Shown one piece after another: positions 6,031 through 38,775 of a stretch of 64,000 nt of DNA (within the stretch, counting starts at the first letter, position 1; each line of letters begins with the position of its first letter). A program made the translations under genes and the position numbers. A model generated the notes under the pieces. It was not told the origin of the DNA, searched no databases, and saw nothing but the letters and a program-made list of their open reading frames with translations. The stretch lies in the sequence record NZ_CP067424.1. One strand, written 5' to 3'. This stretch comes from a plasmid.

Positions 6031-6419
6031 GGCCATGGCCGCCAACGACAGCCCAATCCCAGCGGCGGCCGACGCGGCCTGAATGCCCAGGGGTTCTGCA
6101 TGCTCTCTATGGTAGCCGATAGCGCTACGCAGGCATGCGCTACACGATCCCGCGCGGGCCTGGGAGCAATCCCCGGCGGAAGCATGGCCGAGGCGGGCGC
6201 TGTCTGCAACGGGGTACCGGAGATGACCGGACGTTGTGACTGACCAGACGGATAGACGGGCATCATGTCCGCCATCCGCCTCGACATCCCGACGATGATC
6301 CTGGTCGCCAGTTTCGACCGGCGGGATCCCAGCCTGATGCGGACGCGCTGGGCAGACGAGTCGGTTTACCCCATGATCTTGCTCGTTGTACGGCTCCGCT
6401 CCGAACTCGAGGATCATCA

Positions 6420-6644
6420 ATGACCACTGTCCTGCCGGAATTCAACCGTCTGCTGATCGAGGCTCATGGGAGCTTGGAAGAGCTGGACTATTTCGACCTC
6501 GATAGCAAGGACCCCGCATCGAAGGCGCAGTTTGAGGAGATCGATCAGCGCTACAGGAAGGATGCAGAGGCTCTGGTCGAATTCGTCACTTCGAACCGGG
6601 ACGCACTCATAGCCGCCATCTGGGAACTCGGAGTGCCCGACTGA
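6420..6644 (+). CDS. Hypothetical small acidic protein (74 aa)
   Basis: Clean ORF with ATG start between the transposase remnant and Tn3-family element B. No known motif. Confidence 0.3.
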   Translation: MTTVLPEFNRLLIEAHGSLEELDYFDLDSKDPASKAQFEEIDQRYRKDAEALVEFVTSNRDALIAAIWELGVPD

Positions 6645-6951
6645 TTGGGTCAGGGTACGGCAACGCCGGGTGAGATGGTCAAACATCCAGACTGAAAAAA
6701 GCCGCCGCCGCCTCAAGCGCCGCGGCGCTGGTGAACGGCCGGCCCTCAGGCGATGCACGGTAGGTCTCCCAGACCAGGAACTCTTCGGTCGCCGGCTGCT
6801 CGCCCCGTACCAGCTCGCGGACGGTGATCCGGGCGATCGTCTCGGCATCGGCTGGGATCAGCGTCCAAGGCCCCTCCCCTTCCAGCTCGCCGGGTATCAG
6901 GACCATGCGCATGAACAGAACGGTGTACTGTCATAAAGCTTTGCAAAAGAC

Positions 6952-9948: not shown

Positions 9949-9959
9949 GGTTCGCACAT

Positions 9960-10070
9960 CTCCGGACATTTGCGAGGGCCGGGCGGGATCAGGAAAACCA
10001 ACGGCTTGACCCTCGCAAAACATAGGCGCGAAAGTGCGTCTTTTTGCGATATGTTTTGCGAGGCTGCGGC
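9960..10070. promoter_or_regulatory. Probable res site / divergent promoters of Tn3-family element B
   Basis: Intergenic tnpA-tnpR region with repeated TTGCGAGG / CCTCGCAA half-sites (tttgcgagggc … ccctcgcaaaacata … tgttttgcgagg), as expected for resolvase subsites. Confidence 0.4.
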
Positions 10071-11601: not shown

Positions 11602-12690
11602 GTGCCATCGAAGAAAACGCCGACCGGCTCGCGCGAAGGGGATCAGTACGGTTTCGACCTCTCCGCCTCCCGTGGCCGTGCCATGCGGGAGAAGATGCGC
11701 CAAGCTGCGGAGTCGGCGGACGACAGGGGCGACCTGAAGCCTCTCGGCAGCGCGATCACCCTTCCCGCTCTGACGCCGATCAAGAAGCGCCTGCTGGAAG
11801 CATCTGTCGAGATCAGGGCGGACGAGCCGGAGGAGCTGGCATTCCAGCACACATGCCTGACGCAATGCTCGATGCCTGCCGCCAAGCCGAAACCGGGAGT
11901 GCTGACATGGGAGCGCCGTCAGGGCCGCACCATGCTTCAGGTATCCGCCGGAACGGCGATGAACCCCAAGGGCGGGAAATGGGTGCAACTCGGCCTGCCG
12001 TATGGCCCCAAGGCCCGCCTGCTGCTGATGCACCTGAACAGCGAGGCGATCCGCAGCGGCTCCCCCGTCATTCCGGTGGAAGACAGCATGACGGCGTTCT
12101 TCCGCCGCCTGATGGGCCGGTCTATCGACGGGCGCCAGGTGCGCATGCTGAAGACGCAGCTTTCGGCGCTCGCCGCCGCGACCTTCCGCATGGGTATCGC
12201 CTACGAAGACCATTCCATGCAGATGACCGGCCAAGTGGTCGGAGCCTTCGAGCTTTGGTCGCTGACCGATGAGGGGCAGCGGGTGCTATGGCCAGCCACC
12301 CTGCGCCTGTCGACCGATTATTTTGACAGCCTGAGCCGGTATGCGGTGCCGCTGGATGAGCGGGCTATCGCGGCGCTCGCCTTCTCCGCCGTGGCACTGG
12401 ACATCTATTGCTGGCTGGCGCAGCGCCTGCATCGTATCCCGGTCGGAAGGCAGCAATTCGTACCGTGGACGGCGCTGCTGGAGCAGTTCGGGCAGGGGTA
12501 CAGGGAAATCCGGTTTTTCCGCCGCGACTTCCTGCACCTCCTGCAGCAGGTAAAATCCGCTTACCCTGAAGCGATCTTTGATGCGGACGGCAAGGGCATG
12601 TACCTCACGACCTCGCCGCCGCCTGTCAGAAAGAAGCTGGTGATGCTGCCGGGTGCGAAGACGCTAGACCTGAAGGCGGTGAAAAGTTGA
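11602..12690 (+). CDS. repA: Plasmid replication initiator RepA (alphaproteobacterial RPA family)
   Basis: 362 aa. The central block GKWVQLGLPYGPKARLLLMHLNSEAIRSGSPVIPVEDSMTAFFRRL is characteristic of the 'replication initiator protein A' family of alphaproteobacterial plasmids. GTG start. Followed by iterons. Confidence 0.65.
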   Translation: MPSKKTPTGSREGDQYGFDLSASRGRAMREKMRQAAESADDRGDLKPLGSAITLPALTPIKKRLLEASVEIRADEPEELAFQHTCLTQCSMPAAKPKPGVLTWERRQGRTMLQVSAGTAMNPKGGKWVQLGLPYGPKARLLLMHLNSEAIRSGSPVIPVEDSMTAFFRRLMGRSIDGRQVRMLKTQLSALAAATFRMGIAYEDHSMQMTGQVVGAFELWSLTDEGQRVLWPATLRLSTDYFDSLSRYAVPLDERAIAALAFSAVALDIYCWLAQRLHRIPVGRQQFVPWTALLEQFGQGYREIRFFRRDFLHLLQQVKSAYPEAIFDADGKGMYLTTSPPPVRKKLVMLPGAKTLDLKAVKS

Positions 12691-16113: not shown

Positions 16114-16992
16114 TTATAGGTCGGTGTCTGGCTGGGTAGAGGTCATTTTCGGTGGTCGTCCCCGGCGGCGTGGTTGAGGTTGAGGGGTAGTGATGGATCG
16201 GGTTCGAGTGTTGTCCGGGATCAGGTCGGCGTGGCGGCGGAGCCGGTAGCTGGCTCCCTCGATCTGAACGACAACGGCATGGTGTAGCAGGCGGTCCAGC
16301 AGCGCGGTGGCGACGACGGTGCCGCCGAAGACATCGCCCCATTCGGCAAAGCCGCGGTTCGAGGTCAGGATCATCGCGCCGCGTTCGTAACGGGCATTTA
16401 CCAGCTGGAAGAATAGGTTGCCGCCCCCCGGGATGACGGGCAGATAGCCGATCTCATCGACGATCAGCAACTGGGGCCGGCACAGAAAACGCAGGCGTTC
16501 GCGCAGGGTGCCTTCCCGCTCCGCCTTGGCGAGCGAACTGACGATGTCGGCCAGGGTGGCGAAGTAGACCGAACGACCGGACTTGACCGCCTCGACACCG
16601 AGGGCCAGCGCCAGATGGGTTTTGCCGCAGCCGGGTTGACCGAGGAAATGGACCGCCTCGTGGCGATCGACGAAGTCGAGCTGGGCCAGCGCCATGATGC
16701 GGTCGCGGTCAAGCGAGGGCTGGAAGGAGAAGTCGAACCCGCCCAGGGTCTTGATGTTGATCAGCCGGCCCATCTTCAGCGCGGACCTGACGCGTCGCCC
16801 CTCCCGCAGGGTCAGTTCCTCGCCGAGCAGGGTGTCGATGGCCTCCAGGGCCGAGATCTCGCCGCGTTCGATCCGCCGCAGGATATGCTCCAGCACTTCG
16901 AGCGCGCGCGGCATGTTGAGACCGACCAGGTGAGCGCGGATGCGGTCGAGCGTGGCGGGGCTGGCCGCCGGATCGAGGGTGGTTGCGGTCAT
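16114..16992 (-). CDS. istB: IS21 helper ATPase IstB
   Basis: Walker A GQPGCGKTHLALALG and an AAA+ IstB-type sequence. 4-bp overlap with istA. Confidence 0.85.
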   Translation of the reverse strand: MTATTLDPAASPATLDRIRAHLVGLNMPRALEVLEHILRRIERGEISALEAIDTLLGEELTLREGRRVRSALKMGRLINIKTLGGFDFSFQPSLDRDRIMALAQLDFVDRHEAVHFLGQPGCGKTHLALALGVEAVKSGRSVYFATLADIVSSLAKAEREGTLRERLRFLCRPQLLIVDEIGYLPVIPGGGNLFFQLVNARYERGAMILTSNRGFAEWGDVFGGTVVATALLDRLLHHAVVVQIEGASYRLRRHADLIPDNTRTRSITTPQPQPRRRGRPPKMTSTQPDTDL

Positions 16993-18263
16993 GGGACACC
17001 CTGCTGGCTGGCGAGACGGCGGCCGATCGCGTCGTAGATGGCCAGCGAACGGGGTGTCACCGTGCTGCCCCGAGGCTCGGGCCTGGCCTCCTCCCGGGCC
17101 GTCCTGCTGTTGGCCGGCGGCGGCTGGGTGCGGTGACCGGGAGCGATCCGGCGCTGGCCGCGGCCTTCCTGTGCCGGATGGGAGGCGATGAGGATGCCGT
17201 CCTCCAGGATGTTGACCGCGCCGGCGGTAATCTGCACCTCGACGGTCCGCCGGCGGGTGCTGTCGGGCACGGAGTAGAGATTGCCGGCGACGGAGACCAT
17301 GCCGTCGCGGGTGATGCGGCGCTCGAGTGCCAGCACGGTGTTGAAGGGACCGGCCGGGAGGGCCTTGAGGTGATCGCGCTCCTCGGCGAAATGCTCGACG
17401 ACGACACGCTGGGTGGTGGCGTGCAGGCGAACGTTGGCGACCTGGTCCAGCCACTGGACGAACTGGGCGTTCAGGTCGTCCAGATTGCGGAAGGTGCGGG
17501 CGAGGAAGAAGTCCTCCCGGACATAGCGGAAGGGCCGCTCCACCTTGCCCTTGGTCTGTGCCCGGTAGGGCCTGCAGGCCTTCGGCAGGAAACCGTAGCA
17601 GGCGGCCAGATCGAGGAGCTTGGCATTGTAGGCGATCCCCTTGGCCGGCTGGTCGGGGTCCTCGACGTCACCGAGCACGGCGGTCTTCATGCGGTCATAA
17701 AGGATCTGCTCGGGCACGCCGCCGAACGCCTCGAAGGCGGCGATGTGGCACCGGAGCACGGTCGGCAGATCCTGGCGGGCGACGAAGCGGGCCCACATCA
17801 TGCGGCTGTGGCCGAGCACGATCGAGAACAGCCAGACGATCCGCTCGACGTCGGGCTGGTCGGTGAACACGGTCTTGAAGAAGGCGAAATCGACCTGGGC
17901 CTGCTTGCCGGGCGGTGTCTCGAACCGGCGCTCGAACTGTGTCTCGGGCCTGGGCCGGACGGTACGCAGGAAATCCTTCAGCACGGTATAGCCGCCCTGG
18001 TAGCCGAGCGCGCGGATGTCCCGGAGCAGACGTCGGCCGCTGAGTTCCGGGAAGGCCTGGAGGCGCTCCCGCAGATAGGGTTCAAAGGGGCCGACAAGGG
18101 TCTGTCGCGGGGGCCGCGGCGTGTAGGCGGGCGGCTCCAGCCCCTTGGCGATGTACTTTCGGATGGTCTTGCGGTCCAGGCCGGTCCGGCGCGCGATTGC
18201 CGACACGCTCAGCCCCTGGCGGGCGAGATCGAGAATCATGACGAGTTCCCCAAGTGTGACCAC
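16989..18263 (-). CDS. istA: IS21 transposase IstA
   Basis: N-terminal HTH (LSVSAIARRTGLDRKTIRKYI) and a DDE core (…HSRMMWARF…QILYDRMKTAV…) typical of IstA. 424 aa. Confidence 0.85.
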   Translation of the reverse strand: MVTLGELVMILDLARQGLSVSAIARRTGLDRKTIRKYIAKGLEPPAYTPRPPRQTLVGPFEPYLRERLQAFPELSGRRLLRDIRALGYQGGYTVLKDFLRTVRPRPETQFERRFETPPGKQAQVDFAFFKTVFTDQPDVERIVWLFSIVLGHSRMMWARFVARQDLPTVLRCHIAAFEAFGGVPEQILYDRMKTAVLGDVEDPDQPAKGIAYNAKLLDLAACYGFLPKACRPYRAQTKGKVERPFRYVREDFFLARTFRNLDDLNAQFVQWLDQVANVRLHATTQRVVVEHFAEERDHLKALPAGPFNTVLALERRITRDGMVSVAGNLYSVPDSTRRRTVEVQITAGAVNILEDGILIASHPAQEGRGQRRIAPGHRTQPPPANSRTAREEARPEPRGSTVTPRSLAIYDAIGRRLASQQGVP

Positions 18264-18408: not shown

Positions 18409-18892
18409 CCTGGCGGGTGATGGCGGCGACCAGCCGTTCGAGCGTGGTGCGGGCGGGCAGGATGACCTTCGCCGCGGACAGCGACGCTTCCGCCCGCTGG
18501 ATCAGGTCGGCGGTCGTCAGGCCATCGGCGGCGACCGCCGAGAGATCGGTCTCCAGACGGTTTTGGGCGTCGGTGGAAAACACCGTGAACCCGAGGTGGT
18601 CGCGCACCCGGGCGCGGATGGCGCTGTCGGTCGGCTGGCGGGCCAGGGAAGCCAGCCGGGCCGGTGGATCAATCCCGAGCCGGCGGGCCAGGTGGATGAC
18701 AGCGTCCCGCGGAACCTGCTCCGGGTCGTCGATGAACCGGCCGGTGCGGCGCACGCCGCACAGGTGCAGCGCGGTCCACAGGCGGTTGTCCGGACCGCGG
18801 GCGCGCATGACCTCCCGGAGGTCGGCCTCGTCGAGTGCCCAGTCGTTCAGGATCCGGTCCGGGTCGATCTCCTCCGGAGCGGGCTCAGCCAT
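18409..18892 (-). pseudogene. tnpA: Tn3-family TnpA of element C, N-terminal (DUF4158-like) part, separated from the rest by IS21
   Basis: MAEPAPEEIDPDRILNDWALDEADL…ILPARTTLERLVAAITRQ aligns with the N-termini of the other TnpA copies. Ends at the IS21 boundary. Confidence 0.8.
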
Positions 18893-19823
18893 CGAGATTG
18901 AACGGGGTCTGCTCGACGTCCCGGGCGAGATCCTCGGTCGAGGCGCGGGTGTAGACGGCGGTGGTGTCGAGGCTCTCGTGGCCGAGCAGCTGGGCCAGTT
19001 CGACCAGCTTGCCCGGATGCTGGCGCAGCCAGGCCAGGGCGAAGGTGTGGCGCAGGCTGTGGGCGGAGATGCCGGCGCGCTTGAGGCCGGCGCGGCGCAC
19101 TAGGCCGGCGATCGTGTTCTGGATCGAGCGCACCGGCAGCGGCTCGCTGCGGGTCGAGCGGAACACCGGATCCTCCGGCCGGGCGGGAGCCGGATCCCGC
19201 TCGAAGACTTGGCGCAGCGCCCGGCGGGCGGTGGCGTTGAGCGGCACCTCGCGTTCCCTGAGGCCCTTGCCGTGGCGGACGCGGAGCACGCCGGCGCGCT
19301 CGCGCAGGGTAATGTCGGCGCGCCGCAGGGCGGCCACCTCACCGATCCGCAGGCCGGTCTGCAGCATGAGCTGGACCAGCGCGTAGTTGCGCCGGGCCAG
19401 GCCGTGGGAGCTCTCACCAGCGGCGCGCAGCAGTCCATGGACCTCGGCCGCGGTGAGGCCGACGGGCTGGCGGTCGCCGGTCAGACGGATCGTCCGGACC
19501 CCGGCGGCGACGTTGGCGGCGACAACCCCGGTGGCCTCGGCCCAGCGCAGCACGCGGCGAACGGCCTCGAGACGGCGGTTGATGGTGGTCGCCCTGAACT
19601 GGCAGCGGGTGATCATGTGCTGGCGCCAGGCGATGACGTCGTGCTCGGTCAGCCGCGGCAGATCGGGTGGGGTGCCGTACAGGGCGGCGTACCAAGCGGC
19701 GAACTGGAGCAGATCGTAGCGGTAGCCCCGGCGGGTGGCGGCCGAGAGATCCTCCGCGGCGAGGCGGTCGAGGAAGGACTGAAGCCAGGGCGGAGGATCG
19801 ACCATCGCCGGGGATATTCCCAT
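18885..19823 (-). CDS. tnpI: Tyrosine recombinase (XerD/TnpI-like) of Tn3-family element C
   Basis: 312 aa with R…HxxR…Y catalytic signature (LRHTFALAW…GHESLDTTAVYT). Overlaps the tnpA start by 8 nt. Confidence 0.8.
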   Translation of the reverse strand: MGISPAMVDPPPWLQSFLDRLAAEDLSAATRRGYRYDLLQFAAWYAALYGTPPDLPRLTEHDVIAWRQHMITRCQFRATTINRRLEAVRRVLRWAEATGVVAANVAAGVRTIRLTGDRQPVGLTAAEVHGLLRAAGESSHGLARRNYALVQLMLQTGLRIGEVAALRRADITLRERAGVLRVRHGKGLREREVPLNATARRALRQVFERDPAPARPEDPVFRSTRSEPLPVRSIQNTIAGLVRRAGLKRAGISAHSLRHTFALAWLRQHPGKLVELAQLLGHESLDTTAVYTRASTEDLARDVEQTPFNLDG

Positions 19824-29048: not shown

Positions 29049-30000
29049 GCTGCAGGGGGAGAACCTGACCGCGAACCGGACCGAGGGCATGAGGCGCCTG
29101 CTGGACGACCTGGAGGACGCCTACGGCCCGATCATCCGGACGGCCAAGCAGACGCCGGGCTGCACCGACATCATGGTGAACGAGGACGGCGCGATCTGGC
29201 TGACAGTCGGCGGGCAGGACAGGCCGACCGGCGAGCACCTGACCGAACACGCCGCGCGCCGGATCGTCACCTTGGTCTCGGACATCGACAATCACCCGAT
29301 CGAGAAGGCGGCGCTGTCGGCCAACCTGCCGACCGGCGAGCGGTTCGCGGCCCTGCTGCCGCCCACGGTGCGCCGGATCACCTTCTCGATCCGCCTGCCG
29401 CCGGGGCGGATCTTCACGGTGGACGATTATGTCGCCGCCGGCGCCATGACGGAGGCGCATGCCGACGTGCTGCGCGCGGGCGTGGCCGACCGCAAGAACA
29501 TCCTGATCGTCGGCGGCACCGGAGCGGGCAAGACGACGCTGGGCAACGCCCTGCTGGCGGAGGCGCCGTTCCGGTCCAGCCGGGTCTTCATCATCCAGGA
29601 CCAGGACGAACTGCGGGTGAGTGGTCCCAACGTGGTCCGCGCCTTCACCGGCGCGATGAATGCCCGCGAGCTGGTCCGCGAGGCCTTGCGCCACAAGCCC
29701 GACCGCATCGTGATCGGCGAAATCCGGGACGGGGAGACGGCACTGGAATGGATTGGTGCCAGTAACACCGGCCACCCCGGCGGGCTTTCCACGGTCCACG
29801 CCAACTCGGCGGCGCATGGCCTGTCGCGCATCTCGCGACTGATCGGCCACGTAGCCGCCAACGTGCCGCACGGCGACATCATCGAGGCGGTCGACATGGT
29901 GGCGTTCATCCGGCGGGAGCGGGACGGATCACGGCGCCTGGCCGAGATCGTAAAGCCGACCGGGCATGACGGAGAGAGATACCGGACAGACACCGTCTAG
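29017..30000 (+). CDS. trbB: Conjugal transfer ATPase TrbB (VirB11 family)
   Basis: Walker A GGTGAGKTT. VirB11 motifs DRIVIGEIRD and His box GHPGGLSTVHAN. Start ambiguous (ATG at 29017, 29029 or 29080). Confidence 0.85.
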   Translation: MNARMPAMPLELQGENLTANRTEGMRRLLDDLEDAYGPIIRTAKQTPGCTDIMVNEDGAIWLTVGGQDRPTGEHLTEHAARRIVTLVSDIDNHPIEKAALSANLPTGERFAALLPPTVRRITFSIRLPPGRIFTVDDYVAAGAMTEAHADVLRAGVADRKNILIVGGTGAGKTTLGNALLAEAPFRSSRVFIIQDQDELRVSGPNVVRAFTGAMNARELVREALRHKPDRIVIGEIRDGETALEWIGASNTGHPGGLSTVHANSAAHGLSRISRLIGHVAANVPHGDIIEAVDMVAFIRRERDGSRRLAEIVKPTGHDGERYRTDTV

Positions 30001-30020
30001 GGAGGACACTATAAAACAGG

Positions 30021-30452
30021 TTATGGCCCCGTGGGAAGGCCCAGGCGCAGCAGCGACGCAACCAAGCCGCTTTCGCTGATATCCAGCGCAGCCTGGGACG
30101 GGGTGAGCCAACGCCGTTCACGCTCGTCCCGTTCCGGCCAGTCCTCCAGCTCCTGCGCGACCTCCAGAAGGTAGACGGTGACATGACACTCGACCGACTG
30201 CCTCGCCGTCAGGCGCTTGTCATAGCGGTAGGTGCAGTAAGGAGCAGCCGCGACCCTGCCCCGGACCCCGGCTTCCTCAAACGCCTCCCGGGCGGCCATG
30301 TCATGCGGCTCTGTGCCCTTCTCGGCCCATCCCTTGGGAATGATCCAGCGCCGCGTCTCGCGCGACGTGATCAGGAGCACTTCGAGCCGGTCCCGGACAG
30401 AGCGGTATGGCAGGGCGGCGAACTGGGATCGGGGTTTACGCTGCTTGCTCAT
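30021..30452 (-). CDS. NUDIX hydrolase, antisense, inserted between trbB and trbC
   Basis: Nudix box GWAEKGTEPHDMAAREAFEEAGVRG (GX5EX7REUXEEXGU). 143 aa. Convergent with trbB. Confidence 0.8.
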   Translation of the reverse strand: MSKQRKPRSQFAALPYRSVRDRLEVLLITSRETRRWIIPKGWAEKGTEPHDMAAREAFEEAGVRGRVAAAPYCTYRYDKRLTARQSVECHVTVYLLEVAQELEDWPERDERERRWLTPSQAALDISESGLVASLLRLGLPTGP

Positions 30453-30676
30453 GTCTCGCTCACGGCCGGCGTAGCCACGGCGGAAAGTTCCGTACCGGCA
30501 GAGGCTTTCTGTTTCTGGCAGATTTATCGATTACAACAGGTTACGCGGGGCGCACTCCCCATACCATCCCTTCCGCATTCGTCGTGCCTCATGGCATTTT
30601 TGGCTGAGTTGTTCGCTATCGTACCGACACTCACAGCATAACCGTCCTTCTATCTTGCAACCAGCAGGAAGGAGGC

Positions 30677-30846
30677 AATGATGAACCGCAAAATAGCCAC
30701 TGATAACAAGAATTACGAGAGTAAAAACCTTTTAAGGTCGTTGGAATTTGCTCAATATTTCATTGAGAACTCCCGATGTGCAGATGATGAGGCGGAAGAA
30801 CTTAGGGCTAAGCTAGAATTAAACGCTCAACATCTTCGACGCTAAT
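30677..30846 (+). CDS. Low-GC micro-ORF (56 aa), followed by a 29-aa ORF (30846-30935) with TAATG stop/start overlap
   Basis: RBS GGAAGGAGG 6 nt before the ATG. About 38% GC segment 30650-30845, against 67% backbone. Below the ORF-track cutoff, found by reading the sequence. Confidence 0.3.
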
Positions 30847-31110
30847 GACCACCTTTGACCGATCGGACCTGGAGAAAGCCTTTCGCGAGTGCTACGACAC
30901 CGTTCATCGGCATTTCGAACAATTACCCGAATAGTGAGCTGCGCATTAGTGGATGTCATTCAAGATTTTCCATCTCTGGTACGGCAGCGTACCATCAGAA
31001 AACGTTCCTTGTGCTCTCTTCCATCAGGACTGACTAGCTTCAGGAATTTTCCTCCCTGATCTGATGGCCATCCAAGCTCCCGCGGATGGCCACTTTTTCG
31101 TTGGAAGGCT

Positions 31111-31317
31111 ATGGCACAGGATCGCGTCTGTCTGCTTGATCACCTGGACGGCCTGATCTATCTGGCCGATCAGGCATGGCAGCTTCCACCGGGCAGAAGT
31201 TTGTATCTCGTGCATACCTTCCAGCACCTGGGGCAGGCATATCAGGATGCCGCCCTGGCGCAGCGGGAAGAGCGGCCCACACGGTTGCGTATCTCGTATA
31301 ATTACATTCTCAAGTAG
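31111..31317 (+). CDS. Small paralog P1 (68 aa) of a four-gene tandem family
   Basis: LLDHLDGLIYLADQAWQLPPGRSLYLVHTF… is homologous to P4 (LLDQVNGVISLADVAWRLPPGRSASLARKF…). Followed by a conserved intergenic motif TAGTATATTT…GTTCCGCGATCC. Confidence 0.4.
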   Translation: MAQDRVCLLDHLDGLIYLADQAWQLPPGRSLYLVHTFQHLGQAYQDAALAQREERPTRLRISYNYILK

Positions 31318-31356
31318 TATATTTTTCCATATTGTTTGTTCCGCGATCCTGCCGCC

Positions 31357-31612
31357 GGTGGCCTGTTGGGTCGGGACGGAACAGGACCATGACAGTGTGC
31401 ATGTCGGCCTGGACCGGTTGATTGAACTGGCGCGCCAGGCTTCGCCAGACAAGCGCATGCGGCTGATCCGGGCATTCCGGCAGGTCGCCGAGGTACTCCA
31501 GGAGGTCATTCGGGTTCGGGAAGAAATGCACGGCGCCGGGAATGAACCCAGCCGGCGGTACCCTGTTAGGGACCTATGGAAATCGATTACGCAGCCTCGC
31601 GCGCCCGCCTGA
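31357..31612 (+). CDS. Small paralog P2 (about 85 aa, GTG start)
   Basis: …VGLDRLIELARQASPDKRMRLIRAFRQVAEVLQEV… aligns with P1, P3 and P4 (LD.L..LA.QA..P…L…F…V.E pattern). Confidence 0.3.
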
Positions 31613-31851
31613 AACGGCTAACGGAACTGCTGGAAATAATCCGGGGAGCTCCGCACCAGGATCAGGCTCGGCTGTCACAGACCCTCATGCTGGTCTGCCA
31701 GGCGCTTCAGACTGTTGCCCGGGTACGTTTGCAGATCGGCGATCCCGGACAGGTGAGGCAGGCCGTCGAGCTTGAGGCGCTGTGCTGGAAGTTCGAGAGG
31801 ACGGCCCTGCGGTACGAAACGCGCTCGAAATTCAGAGGTGATCAACTGTAG
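31576..31851 (+). CDS. Small paralog P3 (91 aa), overlaps the P2 3' end in another frame
   Basis: MEIDYAASRARLKRLTELLEIIRGAPHQDQARLSQTLMLVCQALQTV… resembles P2. 37-nt overlap suggests translational coupling. Confidence 0.35.
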   Translation: MEIDYAASRARLKRLTELLEIIRGAPHQDQARLSQTLMLVCQALQTVARVRLQIGDPGQVRQAVELEALCWKFERTALRYETRSKFRGDQL

Positions 31852-31870
31852 CGATCTTCCCATAGCACTA

Positions 31871-32125
31871 GCCATGAGCAGGCTTGACCCGATCCACCGG
31901 TCGGTTGTTGCATGGGGCATGGAGCAGCATGATCCTACCCTGCTCGACCAGGTGAACGGGGTTATTTCCCTGGCGGACGTGGCGTGGCGCCTACCGCCGG
32001 GGCGTTCCGCTTCCCTGGCCCGGAAATTCCGGCTTATCGGCTTGGTCTTTGAAGCCTCTGCGGCTGTCCAGAAGCGCGATATGCTTAGAGAGCTGCAAAT
32101 CACATACGACGACATCCGTCAGTAG
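31871..32125 (+). CDS. Small paralog P4 (84 aa)
   Basis: Homologous to P1. The same conserved 3' flank (TAGCATATTTACTATATCGTTGGTTCCGCGATCCGGCCG) follows it. Confidence 0.4.
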   Translation, partial: AMSRLDPIHRSVVAWGMEQHDPTLLDQVNGVISLADVAWRLPPGRSASLARKFRLIGLVFEASAAVQKRDMLRELQITYDDIRQ

Positions 32126-32331
32126 CATATTTACTATATCGTTGGTTCCGCGATCCGGCCGTCGCCGGATCAGCGTGTATTTCCAGCGGGCTCGCGCCTC
32201 GCGCGAGGTTGTAGGCGTCGCTGAAGGCCGGTTCCGGCCCTCTTGACACAAATTCTGGTGCTGCCAGCGGTTGGAAGGCAGGGATGCAGACTGGCTTAGC
32301 GATGATCCTGTCCGTTCGATGGATGGTCGCT

Positions 32332-33645
32332 CTAACAGGCTGCGGAAAAAGGGCTGTGCACGGGCGGGCGGTCGTGATTCTCTTCGGTGGTGTAGACTGC
32401 GGCCGGCGAGGGGACGATGCGGGGATTGGACGAACGCAGCGAGGGTCTGTTCAGCTACGTGAGCTGTGAAGCGCGGGTTCCGGCGAGCCATCCGTTGCGG
32501 CCGATCCGGGCCATCGTGGACGAGGCGCTGGAGGTGATGTCGCCGGCCTTCGAGGGGCTGTACTCCAGGATTGGGCGACCATCGATCCCGCCGGAGAAGC
32601 TGCTGCGGGCGCTGCTGCTGCAGGCCTTCTACTCGGTGCGCTCGGAGCGTCAGCTGATGGAACAGCTCGATTACAACCTGCTGTTCCGCTGGTTCGTCGG
32701 CCTGTCGATGGACGCGCCGGTGTGGGACGTGACGGTGTTCACCAAGAACCGTGAACGGCTGCTGGCCGGCGATGTGGCGGCCAAGTTCCTGGCTAGCGTG
32801 CTGGATCAGCCGCGGGTCAAAACGCTGCTGTCGGACGAGCATTTCTCGGTGGACGGCACGCTGATTGAAGCGTGGGCCGCGGTGAAGAGCTTCCGGCCCA
32901 AGGACGGCAGCGGCGAGCCGCCGGGGCCGGGACGCAACGGCGAACGCGACTTCCATGGCGAGAAGCGCTCCAACGAGACCCACGCCTCGACTACCGATCC
33001 CGAGGCGCGGCTGTACCGCAAGGGCAACGGGCAGCCGGCGAAGCTGGCCTTCATGGGTCATGCGCTGATGGAGAACCGCCACGCCCTGGTGGTGGATGTC
33101 CGGCTGACGGCGGCCACCGGCTTGGCCGAGCGCGAGGCGGCGGTGGCCATGGTCGAGGCCATTCCGGGCCGCCACCGCATCACGGTCGGGGCCGACAAGG
33201 CCTACGACACCAGGGATTTCGTGGCGAACATGCGCGAGTTGGGCGCGGCCCCGCACGTCGCCCAGAACACGAACAACCGCCGCTCGGCGATCGACGGCCG
33301 GACCACCCGCCACCCCGGCTACGCCGTCAGCCAGCGGATCCGCAAGCGGATCGAAGAGGTGTTCGGCTGGATCAAGGGAGCCGGCTTGCGCAAAACGCGT
33401 CATCGCGGCACGGCCCGTGTCGGTTGGATGTTCACGCTGACCGCCGCGGCCTACAACCTGATCCGCCTGCCCAAGCTGCTGGCTGCGGCATAATCACGTC
33501 CGGAGCCCGCCTCAACGGCGGCTCCGCGAGCCCTGGATCGAGGCAAACCGCTCCATCTCGACCAAAACGGGCGTCCAAAGCGCCCTCTTCAAGCCTCGGC
33601 GGAGGCAACGGCGCTGCGAAGGCCCATTTTTCCGCGTCCTGCTAA
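32332..33645. mobile_element. IS5-family insertion sequence with 4-bp TSD CTAA (32332-35 and 33642-45)
   Basis: Imperfect terminal IRs CAGGCTGCGGAAAAAGGGCTGTGC (32336-) and CAGGACGCGGAAAAATGGGCCTTCGC (inverted, ending 33641). CTAA direct repeats match the IS5 target preference. Confidence 0.75.
32417..33493 (+). CDS. IS5-family DDE transposase
   Basis: 358 aa with the N-terminal …HPLRPIRAIVDEALEVMSPAFEGLYSRIGRPSIPPEKLLRALLLQ and C-terminal …RIEEVFGWIK… blocks typical of IS5/IS1031-group transposases. Confidence 0.85.
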   Translation: MRGLDERSEGLFSYVSCEARVPASHPLRPIRAIVDEALEVMSPAFEGLYSRIGRPSIPPEKLLRALLLQAFYSVRSERQLMEQLDYNLLFRWFVGLSMDAPVWDVTVFTKNRERLLAGDVAAKFLASVLDQPRVKTLLSDEHFSVDGTLIEAWAAVKSFRPKDGSGEPPGPGRNGERDFHGEKRSNETHASTTDPEARLYRKGNGQPAKLAFMGHALMENRHALVVDVRLTAATGLAEREAAVAMVEAIPGRHRITVGADKAYDTRDFVANMRELGAAPHVAQNTNNRRSAIDGRTTRHPGYAVSQRIRKRIEEVFGWIKGAGLRKTRHRGTARVGWMFTLTAAAYNLIRLPKLLAAA

Positions 33646-33677
33646 AGGCATTGCCTGACGGGGTCTTTGGTGTACTA

Positions 33678-33700
33678 TTGACTACGAATTATTTGTAGTA
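33678..33700 (+). promoter_or_regulatory. Putative trb promoter/operator: TTGACTAC-N9-GTAGTA (palindromic, overlapping a -35-like TTGACT)
   Basis: TACTATTGACTACGAATTATTTGTAGTATTAC 27 nt upstream of trbC. A near-identical element is at 40843-40865 upstream of trbG. Confidence 0.45.
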
Positions 33701-33726
33701 TTACGCAGCCTTGAGGGAGTCATCCT

Positions 33727-34044
33727 ATGCGCAAGACCTTGGGCGATGCAGCATCTTTCGCGCTGGCCACGCTGATCGTCACCGCGGCCGACCCGGCGCT
33801 GGCGCAGTTCAACGGCGGCGGTGACGTGCCGTTCCAGCAGGGTATGAGCACGGTGCTGAACTGGGCCTTCGTCGCCGGCATCGCGGTGGCGCTGTTCTCG
33901 TTCATCCTGGCCTGCGTCTTCCTGTTCATGCGGAACCTGATCGGTTTCGCCGGCGGTGTCCTGGGCGTCCTGATCGGCGGTGCGCTGATGGCGAATGCCC
34001 CGACCATCGTCCAGGGGCTGACCAACCTGTCGAGCCCGTTCTGA
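33727..34044 (+). CDS. trbC: T4SS pilin TrbC (VirB2 family)
   Basis: 105 aa. Long signal peptide, then two hydrophobic helices (…WAFVAGIAVALFSFILACVFLF…GGVLGVLIGGALMA…). Confidence 0.8.
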   Translation: MRKTLGDAASFALATLIVTAADPALAQFNGGGDVPFQQGMSTVLNWAFVAGIAVALFSFILACVFLFMRNLIGFAGGVLGVLIGGALMANAPTIVQGLTNLSSPF

Positions 34045-34319
34045 TGGAGGCCGGGCGGACTTACAAGAGCCTGGAGGTGCCGCCCAACTATTTCGGGTGC
34101 CACATCCACGTGGCGCTGATCGCCATCCTGATGCCGGTGGCGGCCCTGCTGGGCTTCCTGTTCCTGGACTGGCTGACGGCCCTGCTGCTGGTGCTGTCCG
34201 CCCTTGGCTCTTCCGCGACCGTGTTCTCGCTGGGTGCCTGGTTCGGACGCGAAGACCCTTACTGGGTCGAGGGCGGGCAGAGGCATCTCCTGGACGAGGA
34301 GCACTATCTCGATGTTTAG
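34044..34319 (+). CDS. trbD: TrbD (VirB3 family)
   Basis: 91 aa, TGATG overlap with trbC, single TM. Sits between pilin and the VirB4 ATPase, the canonical position. Confidence 0.75.
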   Translation: MEAGRTYKSLEVPPNYFGCHIHVALIAILMPVAALLGFLFLDWLTALLLVLSALGSSATVFSLGAWFGREDPYWVEGGQRHLLDEEHYLDV

Positions 34320-36822
34320 GATCGGAGCGAACCGGGGGGCGGCTGCCGTCCCCCTGACGGCCAAGCTGCCGTGGGCCTACTTCGCCGAGCAGGGCATCGT
34401 GTTCCTGAAGTTCGGCGGCTTCATGCGTACCCTGCGGTTCCGCGGCGGCGATGCCGACAGCATGAGCGAGACCGACCTGGTTGCCACGATGCGGCGACTG
34501 CACGATGCCCTGCGCCGGGTGCGTGGGCAGATGAGCCTGCACATCGAGGCGCAGCGCCGGCCGGCGTCGCCCTATCCCGGCGCCGACCTGGGCGACCGGG
34601 AGCGCCGCGCCCTGTGGCCGGACCCGATCTCCTTCCTGTTCGACGAGGAGCGCCGCACCGCCTACGACCGGACCGGTTCCCAGTTCGAGACCGACCGCTA
34701 CATCACCTTCGTCTGGCGTTGCTCGCGGGCATCGACCCGCCGGGCGCGGTCCTTCTTCATGAGCGGCAAGAAGAAGGCAGGCAAGGCCGGCAGCGCCGAA
34801 CTGCACGAATTCGTCCAGGCCAGCAATGCCGTGAAGGGCATGCTGGACGGCGTCATGAAGGAATGCGCCTGGCTCGACGACGACGACACCTTCGACTTCC
34901 TGCACAAGGCGGTTTCGGTCCATCAGCACCGGGTGAAGCCGTCCTACGGCAAGGCCCGGATCGACTACGACGTTGCCGACTGCCGGGTGGTCGGCGGTGC
35001 CGAGCCGATGCTCGGCCCGTGCCACATGCGGACGATCAGCGTCAAGAATTCGCCGGACACCATCCCCGCGGCGCTGGCCGCGCTGGACTCCCTGCGGTGC
35101 GAGTACCGCTACTCGATCCGGTGGATGGGCATGGAGCACGCCGAAGGCCTGCGTCGCATCGAGCAGCAGCTGCGGGACTGGAGGATGCTCGGCATCGCGA
35201 TGATCCCGATGCTGATCTCGTACATGCTTCGGTCGAACAAGCAGAAGGAGAACGAGGCGGCCAACGCCATGGCCGAGGATGCGCAGGAAGCCATCTACGC
35301 GGTGCGCCGGGATGACCTGACCATCGGCCACGCCACCATCAATGTCGTTGTCTGGGACCGTGACGAGGAACGGCTGGAGAGAAAGGTCGGGTGGGTCGAG
35401 GACACCCTGCGCCGTCAGCAGCTCACCGTCACCAGCTACACCGTGGCGCCCCTCGACACCTGGCTCGGCACCTTGCCCGGCCACATCTACGCCGACCTGC
35501 GCCGGCCGATCCGCACATCCGTCAACCTGGCGCACTTCGCACCCTATTCGTCGGTGTGGTCCGGCGAGGTGTGCAACGATCACCTGTCCAGGAAGCTGGG
35601 CCGGCCGATCCCGCCGCTGCTGATCGCCACGACGGACGGGTCGACCCCGTTCCGGCTGAACCTGCACCGCGGCGACCTGGGCCACACCCTGATCTTCGGC
35701 CCGTCCGGCAACGGCAAAACCACCCTGATGAACGCCATGATCACCGGGTGGCGGCGCATCCCCGGCTCCAAGGTCTGCATCTTCACGATCAAGGGCGGCG
35801 GCGAGGTCGTGACCCGGCTGCTGGGCGGCGTCTCCTACGATGTCGGCGCCGTGGGCCCGGGGGCGCTGGGCTTCCAGCCGCTGCGGTATGCCGACGAACC
35901 CAACGAGCGCATCGAGCTGCTGGAATGGGTGCTGGGCCTGATGCGCGCCCAGGGGATCGACACGAACAGCGCCGTGGTGAAGGAGGAGGCGACCGGTGCC
36001 CTGGACCTGATCGCCCGGAACCCGCCGGAACGACGCACCCTGACCCACTTGAGCGGCTACCTGACCACCGAGGTGCTGAAGCGGGCGGTCCGGCACTATG
36101 CCCTGGCCGGCGACACCTACGGCCGGCTGCTGGACGATGACCGGGACCGGATCGAGCTGTCGGACATCCTCAGCCTGGACATGACAAGCCTGCTGAAGAA
36201 GACCGACGTGGCCCCGCACGTCCTGGCGCACCTGTTCCGCTACGTCGAGCGTCGCGTCTTCACCGGGGACCCGGTGCTGCTGGTGGTCGACGAGGCGTGG
36301 CTGTTCCTGGGCGACAGCCGGTTCGCCGCGAAGTTCGATGAGTGGCTGCGGGCCGCCAGGTCGAAGAACGTGGTCGTGGTGTTCGCCACCCAGAACATGA
36401 AGGATGCCTTCGACAGCGTCATCGGCAAGGTGCTGGCCGATGCCGAGAACGTGCCCAACATCATCCTGCTGCCCAACCACCGCGCCGGCAGCGAGAAGGG
36501 CCGGAAGCCTTACGAGCAGCTGGGATTTCACGAACGCGACATCGAGATCGTGGCAACCGCCACGCCGAAGCGTGACTACTACTTCACGTGCCCTGACGGC
36601 GCCCGGCTGTTCGACCTGGGTCTCGGTCCGCTGGGCCGGGCGCTCTGCTCCTCTACCGACACGAAGGACGACCTCGGCTTGGCCCGGGGCATCCTGGCCG
36701 ACCATCCCGCTGAGGAATTCGCAGAGCACTTCCTCGACGCCAAGGGCGTGGGCTGGGCAGCTGAGTTCGTCCGGCATGAGGCAGGGCGTCGGCCAGTCGA
36801 AATCGCCGCGGCCGCTGAGTAG
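34312..36822 (+). CDS. trbE: Conjugal transfer ATPase TrbE (VirB4 family)
   Basis: About 835 aa. Walker A GPSGNGKTT. Walker B …VLLVVDEAW. ATGTTTAG overlap with trbD. Confidence 0.9.
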   Translation: MFRIGANRGAAAVPLTAKLPWAYFAEQGIVFLKFGGFMRTLRFRGGDADSMSETDLVATMRRLHDALRRVRGQMSLHIEAQRRPASPYPGADLGDRERRALWPDPISFLFDEERRTAYDRTGSQFETDRYITFVWRCSRASTRRARSFFMSGKKKAGKAGSAELHEFVQASNAVKGMLDGVMKECAWLDDDDTFDFLHKAVSVHQHRVKPSYGKARIDYDVADCRVVGGAEPMLGPCHMRTISVKNSPDTIPAALAALDSLRCEYRYSIRWMGMEHAEGLRRIEQQLRDWRMLGIAMIPMLISYMLRSNKQKENEAANAMAEDAQEAIYAVRRDDLTIGHATINVVVWDRDEERLERKVGWVEDTLRRQQLTVTSYTVAPLDTWLGTLPGHIYADLRRPIRTSVNLAHFAPYSSVWSGEVCNDHLSRKLGRPIPPLLIATTDGSTPFRLNLHRGDLGHTLIFGPSGNGKTTLMNAMITGWRRIPGSKVCIFTIKGGGEVVTRLLGGVSYDVGAVGPGALGFQPLRYADEPNERIELLEWVLGLMRAQGIDTNSAVVKEEATGALDLIARNPPERRTLTHLSGYLTTEVLKRAVRHYALAGDTYGRLLDDDRDRIELSDILSLDMTSLLKKTDVAPHVLAHLFRYVERRVFTGDPVLLVVDEAWLFLGDSRFAAKFDEWLRAARSKNVVVVFATQNMKDAFDSVIGKVLADAENVPNIILLPNHRAGSEKGRKPYEQLGFHERDIEIVATATPKRDYYFTCPDGARLFDLGLGPLGRALCSSTDTKDDLGLARGILADHPAEEFAEHFLDAKGVGWAAEFVRHEAGRRPVEIAAAAE

Positions 36823-36831
36823 GAGGAAACA

Positions 36832-38775
36832 ATGCGTCCGTCCGTGATCGCCGGTCTGTTGCTGACCGGCACCGCCATCGGGACCCCCGCCCTGGCGGCA
36901 ACCATCGAGGTGCAGCCGGGCGACAACCTGGAGGCTAAGATCCGCTCGGCCCGGCCGGGCGATACCGTGGCGGTCCGGCGCGGCACCTACAACGGCAGCC
37001 TGGATCTGAGCACCCTGCACGGTGATCCGGGGGCGCCGATCCGCATCCTCTCGGTTGACGGCAAGGGTGCCGCGGTGATCCAGGGGAGCCGCGATCAGGC
37101 CGCCGTGCAGGCCAACCGGATCTCGAACGTCGAGATGGACGGCTTCCATGTGGTCGCCAACGCGCCCGGCGGCGGTGACGTCGGCGGCTTCAAGCTGTGG
37201 GGGCCTTACGGCGACATCGGCAACCTGAAGATCACGAACAACCTGATCACCGGCCAGGGGCAGGACGGCTTCAAGCTGTTCAACATGTCGCCGACCGACC
37301 AGCAGAGCGTCCTGGTGGCCGGCAACACGATCGACGGTAACTGGCGTCAGGAAGCCATCGACAACGTCAGCGTCAAGAATGTCCGGTACGAGGGCAACAC
37401 GATCAGGGGCAAGGCTGGCTTCGCCGGCATCACCTGGAAGGCCGGCAGCGACGGCGTGCAGCTGGTCAACAACACGATCGACATCGACGCCGATACGGCG
37501 GTCTCGGTTGGCGGCTACGGCAACAGCCGCCTGAACCGGATGGACCGGTTCCCCGACGAGTTCCAGGACAACGAGGCAGAAAACAGCGTGGTCACCGGCA
37601 ATACCATCCGGGGCGACGTGCGGGTGATCTCGGCCGAGAACAACCGAGTCGAGGGGAACAGCATCACCGGCAGCATCAGCAACGGCCAGAACAGCCACAT
37701 GCCGGGCTCGATCACCAGCCGGAACAACGCCATCGCCCACAACAGAGTGACCGGCGGCACGGGAGCGTCTGCCTGGAACGGCAACACCGATACCCAGTTC
37801 GAGCGCAACGTGGACGGCCTGGCCAACAATTTCTACGACACCGACGAGCAGTTCTGGGGGGCGGTGGAGCGCGGGGAAGCGGGCGCGCTGCGCCGGCTGA
37901 ACGACCTGGTGTCCGGCGGCATCATCGTGCGCGAGGGCAACCGGATCATCAACAGGGCCACCGGCCAGATCACCAGCGCGGTCGGCAACGCCATCGGCGA
38001 CGCTGTCGACACCGTGCTGCAGCCGGCGGAGGATTACGTCGACGCTGCCGTCGAGACCGTGAAGTGCAACATCGGCGGCGCAGTGATCGGTGGCGCCGCG
38101 TCGGTCGTCAGCGGGATTTTCTCGGGCGGCCGGGCGACGCTGGCAGCACAGATCGCCCAGCAGATGACCGCGATCGCCGGCAACCTGTGCCTGGGCAAAC
38201 AGCTCGCCGCCCAGCAGCGCCTTGTCGAACTTGCCAGGCGGGACAATGCCCACGGCACGGCCGACAATGCCGCCGGCCTCAACGGCATGATGACCAGGAC
38301 CCTGCCGGGGCTGGCGCAGGGCGGCTTCCTGTCGTCCGAGCAGGCCATCGCCAGCCAGTACGGCGAGGTGTACCCGGATGCCTTTCCGCCCATGCTGCCG
38401 GACGACCTGGTTGCCGTGAACCGGTCCATGCAGGCCCACGAACGCACGGTACACCTGAACAGCTTGGCGGTCCAGAACCGGACGGTCCAGGAACAGGCCG
38501 ACACCCTGGAGCGGGCGCGCGACCATGCAGCCGCCGGCCGGGCCGGTGACGGCATCCGCTCCGAGCTGCAGGCCATGAACGCCATTGGCGGCGAGCAGAT
38601 CGCGGCGATCAACAGCCTGACGGCGGCCACGGTAGCTAATCATCGTGCTTCGACCGAGATACAGTTACGGGACGAGTCAAGGAAAGCCGCAGCAAACGCA
38701 ACGGCCGAGGAGTTCATGTCGACCCTGGCGACTTGCGGGAACTGCACCATAGACCGCCCGTTTTTGGGCGAATAG
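36832..38775 (+). CDS. trbJ: Fusion protein: signal peptide, right-handed parallel beta-helix domain (about aa 30-400), then TrbJ (VirB5-like) domain (about aa 400-647)
   Basis: PbH1-type repeats (GNTIDGN, GNTIRG, NNTIDIDAD, GNTIRGDVRVISAENNRVEGNSITG, NNAIAHNRVTGG). The C-terminal coiled-coil region (YGEVYPDAF…LQAMNAIGGEQIAAINSLTAATVANHR…) is homologous to P-type TrbJ. Single uninterrupted ORF with a good RBS. Confidence 0.75.
   Translation: MRPSVIAGLLLTGTAIGTPALAATIEVQPGDNLEAKIRSARPGDTVAVRRGTYNGSLDLSTLHGDPGAPIRILSVDGKGAAVIQGSRDQAAVQANRISNVEMDGFHVVANAPGGGDVGGFKLWGPYGDIGNLKITNNLITGQGQDGFKLFNMSPTDQQSVLVAGNTIDGNWRQEAIDNVSVKNVRYEGNTIRGKAGFAGITWKAGSDGVQLVNNTIDIDADTAVSVGGYGNSRLNRMDRFPDEFQDNEAENSVVTGNTIRGDVRVISAENNRVEGNSITGSISNGQNSHMPGSITSRNNAIAHNRVTGGTGASAWNGNTDTQFERNVDGLANNFYDTDEQFWGAVERGEAGALRRLNDLVSGGIIVREGNRIINRATGQITSAVGNAIGDAVDTVLQPAEDYVDAAVETVKCNIGGAVIGGAASVVSGIFSGGRATLAAQIAQQMTAIAGNLCLGKQLAAQQRLVELARRDNAHGTADNAAGLNGMMTRTLPGLAQGGFLSSEQAIASQYGEVYPDAFPPMLPDDLVAVNRSMQAHERTVHLNSLAVQNRTVQEQADTLERARDHAAAGRAGDGIRSELQAMNAIGGEQIAAINSLTAATVANHRASTEIQLRDESRKAAANATAEEFMSTLATCGNCTIDRPFLGE

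Follow-up and report, generated by a model that had tools for sequence, protein, structure and literature searches.

Predicted alpha-hairpin protein genes and a conserved non-coding module within a type IV secretion operon of a Skermanella plasmid

Results

Four tandem genes on the plasmid

A stretch of 64,000 nucleotides (nt) of plasmid DNA (record NZ_CP067424.1; hereafter the window) was analyzed with the focus on a tandem array of four small genes, P1 to P4, and on the non-coding sequences that lie between and behind them. The window has a GC content of about 65%, and its nearest relatives are Skermanella plasmids. A sequence-only reading of this DNA had proposed four small paralogous genes here, and the listing of open reading frames (ORFs) in the window contained all four on the + strand. 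P1 (31111-31317, +) encodes a protein of 68 amino acids (aa) of the short type, annotated as the hypothetical protein IGS68_34825 of Skermanella sp. TT6. Its leader (31061-31110, +) forms the left edge of the P1 cassette and carries a GGAAGG ribosome-binding site 5 nt upstream of the ATG. P3 (31576-31851, +) encodes a long-type protein of 91 aa, annotated as the hypothetical protein IGS68_34830. P1 and P3 were identical to hypothetical proteins on the 71-kb plasmid of Skermanella sp. TT6 (S. cutis). P2 and P4 carry no NCBI annotation.

Two gene starts differed from those first proposed. The P2 gene was confirmed, but its GTG lies at 31358 instead of 31357. P2-type homologues begin with MEQD(H/R)D..VGL, and the equivalent ATG is ACG in the window (31376-31378). 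Therefore, the start of P2 must be either GTG 31358, giving 84 aa (31358-31612, +), or GTG 31397, giving 71 aa; the latter is the start chosen for P2-type genes by gene callers elsewhere. Compared with its relatives, window P2 is four residues shorter in helix 1 and has no Arg-rich tail, so it may be decaying. P4 was also confirmed as a gene, of the short type, but its start was most likely 31919 (31919-32125, +; 68 aa) and not 31871, which would give 83 aa, because 8/8 P4 homologues are 68 aa long. In the comparison locus L010 (comparison loci are given as L numbers), an in-frame TAG shuts the upstream extension of the P4 homologue.

The ratio of nonsynonymous to synonymous substitution rates (dN/dS) of P4 against two homologues was 0.18-0.19, with 26-28 third-position changes versus 6-7 second-position changes, and all five other frames contained stops. 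The possibility that the region is non-coding was thus not borne out, as reading frames were conserved and dN/dS was about 0.18 for P4. The comparisons indicated that P1-P4 are homologous and protein-coding.

Predicted fold and relationship of the four proteins

Structure prediction by AlphaFold2 with 29 sequences gave a plain alpha-hairpin with helices at residues 6-22 and 27-67 and a predicted local distance difference test score (pLDDT) of 81. The two predicted helices agreed with the suggestion that the proteins are helical. No transmembrane segment or signal peptide was found in P1-P4, the maximum 19-residue Kyte-Doolittle mean being 0.41-1.04. The N-termini are acidic (MAQD, MEQHD), with an isoelectric point (pI) of 6.5-9.6 and a near-neutral or basic charge.

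The proposed pairing of P1 with P4 and of P2 with P3 held in BLASTP comparisons, with 41% identity across 66 aa (E=3e-17) for the first pair and 33% identity across 45 aa (E=1e-4) for the second. Three subtypes could be distinguished among family members of 59-92 aa: short (P1, P4), P2-type, and long (P3). Profile comparison by hhalign gave probabilities of 95.5% (E 1.4e-8) for short versus long, 93.6% (E 2.2e-7) for short versus P2-type, and 96.1% (E 2.9e-9) for long versus P2-type, all collinear from residue 1. With 94-96% probability among the subtypes, the paralogy of all four proteins was well supported. A hidden Markov model (HMM) trained on P1/P4 relatives only was run against 3661 local ORFs; it matched the P2 frame (E 3.6e-8) and P3 (E 7e-3), and it matched the P2 and P3 orthologues in another contig at about 5e-6.

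The alignments, HMM, and hhalign comparisons revealed a common family signature. It consists of an N-terminal M-x-(Q/D)-D, a helix 1 with L-x-x-L-(D/N)-(G/R)-L-I-x-L-A, a Pro-containing turn with the motif AW(R/Q)LPPG, a long helix 2, and a C-terminal L-(R/Q)-I-x-x-D-I. The long form (P3-type, 84-92 aa) equals the short form plus about 21 residues in helix 2, and P2-type homologues end in Arg-rich, RRRRKR-like tails. P1-P4 belong to one unnamed family of small soluble cytoplasmic alpha-hairpin proteins.

Distribution of the family

The statement that no known domain is evident was upheld by Pfam, NCBIfam, PHROGs, PADLOC, and PDB sequence searches, none of which gave a meaningful match. None of 29 family members matched Pfam at E<=1. 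Seven members weakly matched phrog_24281, which is of unknown function (best E 0.0027), and the only signal to an Imm family was a chance-level match of P3 to Imm31 (E 0.14).

An HMMER sweep of 1.84 billion representatives returned 32 clusters, one of them spurious; cluster P0011 (870 aa, 11 profile matches) was discarded as a Cys/Ser/Leu-rich eukaryote-like repeat protein. The remaining clusters had 51-159 aa, nearly all fewer than 100, and came from soil metagenomes and Skermanella stibiiresistens. The sole named family member is annotated as hypothetical. By tblastn, the family was found in 2 of 72,556 plasmids, both from Skermanella and both with a damaged and unannotated P1-like copy, and in none of 50,697 phages. 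Protein-pattern scans of a genome contig collection and of a viral contig collection gave no match, and a metagenome scan gave one locus. A DNA-pattern scan of the genome contigs gave only three chance-like matches in unrelated taxa. The family is very rare and restricted to Skermanella and relatives, and some of the contigs that carry it are phage-like.

Junction sequence between the genes

The repeat of about 45 nt reported after P1 and P4 was real: self-comparison aligned 31313-31357 with 32121-32164 at 82% identity (E 5e-7). Its core, however, was not limited to P1 and P4, since it recurs behind P3 as TTCCCATA (31857-31864). The first junction block (31286-31357, +) comprises the last 10 codons, TAG, a TTTCCATA box (31324-31331), and GTTCCGCGATCC, and includes direct repeat 1 (31313-31357). 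The second junction block with the P4 leader (31821-31918, +) comprises TAG, the TTCCCATA box, a conserved CAGGCTTGACCC (31879-31890), and GTTGCATGGGGC just before the ATG.

The core layout was TAG, 4-5 nt, and (C/T)TTTCCATA. It stood behind almost all family members examined, P3 and a number of 5'-truncated remnants among them, and also 53-66 nt upstream of family genes without a preceding family gene. At least 18 non-redundant box sites lie beside family genes. A local block model placed three sites in the 64-kb window, none of them outside the array, and the exact 8-mer occurred twice, both times in the array, versus about 0.4 occurrences expected from base composition. Conservation at the nucleotide level extended about 30 nt into the coding end. 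In the C-terminal L(R/Q)I, Leu was encoded by TTG in 9/11 genes, versus 13% elsewhere in the family, and the stop codon was TAG in 15/18. The box was predicted to be unpaired, with a variable hairpin downstream of it, and it persisted in contigs whose proteins are only 25-40% identical. Short module copies, consisting of the box and about 55-65 nt, separate family genes; such shortened copies stand after P1 and P3.

Several identities were considered for the box. A search of 30000-33000 against Rfam matched no family. Sigma-70, sigma-54, EcfG, DnaA-box, IHF, dif/Xer, and attC sites were compared by eye with consensus sequences, and none fitted consistently. Base pairing between the box and the translation start region of the following gene (start codon or ribosome-binding site) occurred in the minimum-energy fold of 2/9 junctions, with no covariation. 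An antisense ORF from the ATG within the box (ATGGAAAGG) had 6 to 102 codons and no consistent ribosome-binding site; it was also dismissed since such frames are expected in GC-rich antisense sequence.

Conserved non-coding module D

P4 is followed by a conserved non-coding module, D (32126-32331, +). Its degenerate box TTTACTATA lies at 32130-32138 and its first hairpin at 32152-32171, and direct repeat 2 spans 32121-32164. The 3' part of D (+) has a second hairpin, CTCGCGC..GCGCGAG, and CTCTTGACACAAATTCTGGTGCTGCCAGCGGTTGGA at 32240-32275. The module has about 160 nt and was found downstream of short-type genes in five contexts, namely the window, L025, L030, L032, and L010/L008. It starts with the box, GTTCCGC, hairpin 1, ATTTCCCC, TGTGATYYCAAC, and hairpin 2. 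It ends with CCCTCTTGACACAA..TCTGGTGCTGCC.GCGGTTGAG at +115 to +150, summarized as CTTGACACAA..TGGTGCTGCC..GCGGTTGAG. D carries two or three hairpins. The hairpin at 32152-32171 (z = -2.4) and the L014a hairpin were strong and the rest weak or variable, and none had a canonical T-tract. TTGACA in D had no recognisable -10 element 16-18 nt downstream.

The genes after D differed between contexts. They were virB2 in the window, a 210-aa gene with prohead protease and capsid genes in L008/L010, and phage-like genes in L032. A pattern scan of viral contigs gave two further D copies without a family gene upstream, one of which heads a 210-aa/protease/capsid operon as in L008. Full copies of D thus precede phage head genes in L008, L010, and L036 and virB2 pilus genes in the window. 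In all, D was conserved in 7 diverged copies regardless of the following gene. Because D is kept regardless of the gene after or before it, the motif described as a 3' element of particular genes was reinterpreted as the leading edge of an independent conserved module. The results indicated that D is an independent non-coding module heading operons in this group of mobile elements.

The D-headed operon in L036 (1849-4706) and L008 (5433-8377) is conserved and encodes the 210-aa protein, which matched no family, together with an S78 prohead protease and an HK97-type capsid. Behind the capsid gene, L008 and L009 have a 130-aa ORF and a gene for a 1184-aa DUF6371 protein, not portal or terminase genes, and the element may be satellite-like or a reduced phage. 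On the reverse strand of L035, a viral contig, a run of GTGAGGGGAACGGTT / TAACGGT repeats lies about 300-450 nt upstream of D. These repeats adjoin a divergent helix-turn-helix (HTH) gene and resemble iterons or operators.

Gene order and origin of P1

The 37-nt overlap of P2 and P3 was correct, and the suggested coupling of the two genes gained support from the other loci, as a long-type gene immediately follows every P2-type gene (window, L010, L020, L003). The two genes overlap by 37 nt in the window and by about 11 nt in L003, and in L020 they are 31 nt apart. The order P2-type, long, short recurred in L010 and L020 with proteins 35-75% identical. L020 has an HTH gene (HTH_3), P2-like (59 aa), long (84 aa), long (92 aa), and short (68 aa) genes, and a fifth, truncated family copy on the opposite strand; it is phage-like, with portal, Mu-F, scaffold, and HNH genes, and contains a type II restriction-modification system. 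Tandem family pairs were found in L016/L017 and L014.

In L025, S. rosea pSR-3, and S. mucosa pSM-3, a Crp-family gene is followed by a P1-like gene on its own. The window retains the last 90 nt of a Crp/Fnr-family gene (30845-30934, +), 81-87% identical to the intact S. rosea, S. mucosa, and L025 genes. This orphan 3' end showed that P1 arrived with a fragment of its former neighbour. The final codons of P1 and the repeat after it resemble P4-type genes and not Skermanella P1-like genes. The results indicated that P1 is a second short-type copy, mosaic in structure, from a separate Crp-linked lineage. Since the order recurs elsewhere and P1 is of another lineage, the array did not appear to come from duplication of a two-gene unit in this plasmid, as had been suggested.

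Near some arrays, single-domain response regulators are encoded on the opposite strand (L010 2798-3181, L014 2857-3957, L021 3555-4511, L033 45-458). HWE-type histidine kinases accompany response regulators in L010, L014, and L021, of which L014 and L021 represent one orthologous context. The family has no known similarity to NepR sequences, and neither a NepR-like anti-sigma role nor a link to the HWE kinases and response regulators was adopted.

Recombination at the junctions

The two 45-bp repeats precisely bracket an 807-bp unit of P2, P3, and P4, which is missing from L025, where Crp, P1, and D are found. Compared with L025, the window thus has an extra P2-P3-P4 plus one repeat, and the crossover falls in GATCC/GCCGCCGG. 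From the box on, L010 and L008 matched at 98.6% identity; the sequences preceding it were unrelated. The metagenomic variant L029 was identical to the window in 31240-32335, with 57 differences in 31061-31239; its upstream flank is unrelated, the shared sequence beginning only at 31061. This comparison placed a recombination breakpoint of P1 near 31240. Breakpoints map to the junction sequences, which indicates that the array has been reshuffled there. In L003, a Tn3-family transposon with resolvase and transposase genes (6289-10010) cuts the family array, and a 5'-truncated P4-like 3' end with the box stands directly after the transposon end.

Insertion in the type IV secretion operon

The array had been placed inside a conjugation operon. 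This was correct as to physical position, but the array belongs to about 3.8 kb of inserted DNA (29983-33769) that lies between the VirB11-like ATPase gene and the virB2-like gene and has no counterpart in the related S. rosea plasmid pSR-5. The insertion has 61% GC, versus 66-68% in the flanks. No family member at the other loci examined adjoins type IV secretion genes. The comparison indicated that the array is mobile cargo splitting the type IV secretion operon.

Other features of the insertion are a NUDIX hydrolase gene (30021-30452, -) and a low-GC stretch (30650-30850) with a 55-aa ORF (30678-30845) without family match. An IS5-family insertion sequence (32336-33641, +; transposase 32417-33493) lies between D and virB2. 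It has the terminal inverted repeats CAGGCTGCGGAAAAAGGG / CAGGACGCGGAAAAATGGG and is flanked by a 4-bp CTAA target duplication at 32332-32335 and 33642-33645. The element was 98.6% identical to an S. mucosa copy and absent in L029, in which the array stands directly upstream of virB2. It may additionally block transcription into the virB2-virB10 genes. The virB2-like pilin gene (33727-34044, +) is the first gene 3' of D once the insertion sequence is removed.

On the strand opposite to the virB2-virB4 genes, a frame of 1653 aa is open (33682-38643, -). We regard this frame as almost certainly an artefact of GC-rich antisense sequence, because the + strand genes match the S. rosea type IV secretion genes. 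Mobile-element genes crowd the plasmid and encode two transposases of the Tn3 family, one of the IS66 type, an IstB of the IS21 type, and a tyrosine recombinase (18885-19823). A RepA_C replication gene is present as well. These mobile-element and replication genes lie at 173-3223 (-), 4005-5087 (-), 6952-10023 (-), 16114-17454 (-), 18885-19823 (-), and 11602-12690 (+).

Discussion

The explanation we favour, and consider on balance probable, is that the locus is a shuffled array of alpha-hairpin protein genes which, together with the D punctuation module, travels as mobile cargo. The closest known parallel is that of the PeSL cassettes of T4-type phages, promoter-early/stem-loop modules that mediate gene shuffling (PMC2839356, PMC4122927). 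In both cases, copies of a short conserved non-coding module with hairpins stand between small genes of unknown function on mobile DNA, and recombination between copies would insert, delete, or swap genes. End points of insertions, deletions, and replacements do lie in the modules here, as in the 807-bp unit absent in L025 and in the divergence of L010 and L008 at the box. By analogy with PeSLs, D and its short copies would act as transcriptional punctuation, in which a promoter and leader come after terminator hairpins. Repeated copies of D may incidentally serve as recombination substrates that shuffle the small genes. The parallel also has its limits. PeSLs contain a clear sigma-70 early promoter, whereas none was recognisable in D. 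The sequences are unrelated, and D resides in alphaproteobacterial plasmids and in temperate-phage-like elements. Here, the modules flank paralogues of one family, not unrelated ORFans. Mini-circles are known only for PeSLs.

Several results weigh against punctuation by shuffled modules. A sigma-70 consensus scan of 30600-32450 gave 0 sites, and no canonical terminator was detected in or near the box. The hairpins vary, only some fold better than shuffled sequence, and RNAalifold on five aligned D sequences gave no covariation support. A simple terminator or promoter model explains neither the fixed TAG-N4-box spacing nor the conservation of the last 10 codons, in which TTG is kept in 9/11 genes. 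The crossover in the window may likewise reflect short-homology recombination in GCCGCCGG rather than an event specific to the box.

The array also resembles integron cassettes, in which small genes lie in tandem on the same strand and a conserved site right after the stop brackets an insertable unit. However, no attC palindrome with RYYYAAC/GTTRRRY cores was seen by eye in 18 aligned junctions, and the box was unpaired in every fold. No IntI-type integron integrase gene is nearby; the only gene of the Phage_integrase family is 11 kb away (18885-19823), and none was found in the related loci. The cassettes here also carry their own leaders, unlike those of integrons.

The proteins themselves were compared with known small helical proteins. 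WXG100/Esx proteins are likewise helical hairpins of about 70-100 aa encoded by adjacent paralogous genes, expected to form helical bundles and with a Trp near the turn. In contrast to them, the present family gave no Pfam WXG100 match (29 members, E<=1), and its turn is W-x-L-P-P-G, not W-x-G. No type VII secretion genes (EccC-type) were found in the window or related loci, and the host is Gram-negative. The ColE1 copy-number protein Rop is also a plasmid-borne soluble alpha-hairpin of about 65 aa that needs oligomerisation for stability, but the family gave no Rop profile match or specific structural match. Because of the hydrophobic heptads, the long protruding helix 2, and the coupled P2-P3 genes, the proteins probably form homo- or hetero-oligomeric helical bundles.

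As to function, family genes recurrently lie directly upstream of D, which suggests a regulatory role on the D-headed operon. Our guess, offered tentatively, is that the proteins serve the mobile element as accessory regulators and act on the adjacent operon that D would control. A bolder version is unlikely at present: the short-type protein and its own target D of about 160 nt, with box, hairpins, and an unusual promoter, would form a portable regulatory cassette. Such a cassette would plug in upstream of phage head or type IV pilus operons to control them, and the box-delimited genes would represent a new gene-cassette system, independent of integrase, in alphaproteobacterial plasmids and phages.

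The sequence-only reading had instead suggested conjugation-related accessory factors, that is, entry exclusion, anti-restriction or other anti-defence, or immunity proteins. We regard this as equally unlikely. The genes are small and lie on a conjugative-type plasmid as tandem paralogues like those of immunity arrays, and in L020 an HTH gene stands before the array and a type II restriction-modification system next to it, an arrangement like that of anti-defence loci. For anti-CRISPR or other anti-defence loci, an associated Aca-type HTH gene would be expected; L020 alone has an HTH_3 gene in front of the array, and the window has none. Against the proposal, the array is an insertion that the closest related transfer operon lacks, and no family member elsewhere is beside type IV secretion genes. 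Entry exclusion was not supported, as P1-P4 have neither a transmembrane segment nor a signal peptide (maximum Kyte-Doolittle 19-residue mean 1.04) and no TrbK/Eex-type lipoprotein signal or membrane anchor. Anti-restriction fared no better: Pfam and PADLOC gave no match to ArdA, ArdB, or KlcA, and with a pI of 6.5-9.6 and a near-neutral or basic charge the proteins have no strongly acidic surface. More generally, Pfam, NCBIfam, PHROGs (known functions), and PADLOC gave no match for accessory factors of this kind. Immunity arrays of polymorphic toxins do share the tandem, diverged small paralogues on mobile DNA and the recombination-promoting junctions. Unlike those arrays, the locus has no toxin gene or toxin-tip remnants, and its subtypes follow a fixed order instead of occurring in variable numbers. 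No toxin domain adjoins the array, and the HigB/HTH genes of L008 form a divergent unit of their own.

It is slightly less likely still that the box is a DNA or mRNA binding site of the family proteins, in autoregulated cassettes comparable to RNA binding of the Rop or phage N type, for instance by way of the Arg-rich tail of P2-type proteins. The box does accompany the family, upstream as well as downstream of the genes; its predicted single-stranded state and the hairpin after it recall a boxA/boxB layout; and P2-type homologues end in RRRRKR-like tails. Against this, full D modules with the box occur in viral contigs without a nearby family gene, window P2 lacks the arginine-rich tail, and no Rop signal was obtained. 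Outside Rop, the alpha-hairpin is not known to bind nucleic acids sequence-specifically.

Read-through of the TAG stop, adding a conserved extension x-[P/I]-F-H-x-[V/I]-x-S-A, would account for the TAG stop in 15/18 members, the fixed spacing to the stop, the free third position of the +1 codon (CGN/CAN), and the wobble of TCN and GCN at +8 and +9. It was nevertheless considered very improbable. A 1-nt insertion in window P1 relative to its L025 orthologue breaks the frame and keeps the box, and box copies occur without an upstream ORF (L008 4909, L020 3645, L036). The His codon is CAT in 15/16, and the next base is nearly always A, which points to constraint at the nucleotide level and not at the amino-acid level. 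The extensions would also range from 7 to 33 aa, and no suppressor tRNA gene was found.

In-situ duplication of a P1-P2 or P3-P4 pair, with the motif as a functionless leftover, fits the pairwise similarity of P1/P4 and P2/P3 and the 45-nt direct repeat, but it has even less chance of being correct, given the P2-P3-P4 order in L010 and L020 at 35-75% protein identity, the P1 orthologues standing alone after a Crp gene, and a box conserved where the proteins are only 25-40% identical. Chance open frames are the least probable reading of all: high-GC DNA does yield spurious ORFs, several antisense ORFs occur here, NCBI annotated only P1 and P3, and P2 has lost its ancestral ATG, but a dN/dS of 0.18-0.25, a single frame open across homologues, consistent starts, stops, and lengths, and a confident structure prediction already contradict it for P1, P3, and P4.

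The new elements here are the small-protein family and the conserved non-coding module; the principle of shuffling regulatory cassettes was already known. In itself, a well-documented new family of small proteins with very narrow distribution is not surprising, and it is useful for annotation, as P2 and P4 are missing from the public record. If the favoured explanation of a shuffled array with D as mobile cargo is true, modular shuffling of the PeSL kind would not be confined to lytic T4-type phages but would include alphaproteobacterial plasmids and temperate elements, and the locus would offer a testable candidate for the wiring of a transfer or head operon to a mobile regulator. Skermanella plasmids and phage-like elements would then share a toolkit of tiny helical proteins and a swap module that heads operons.

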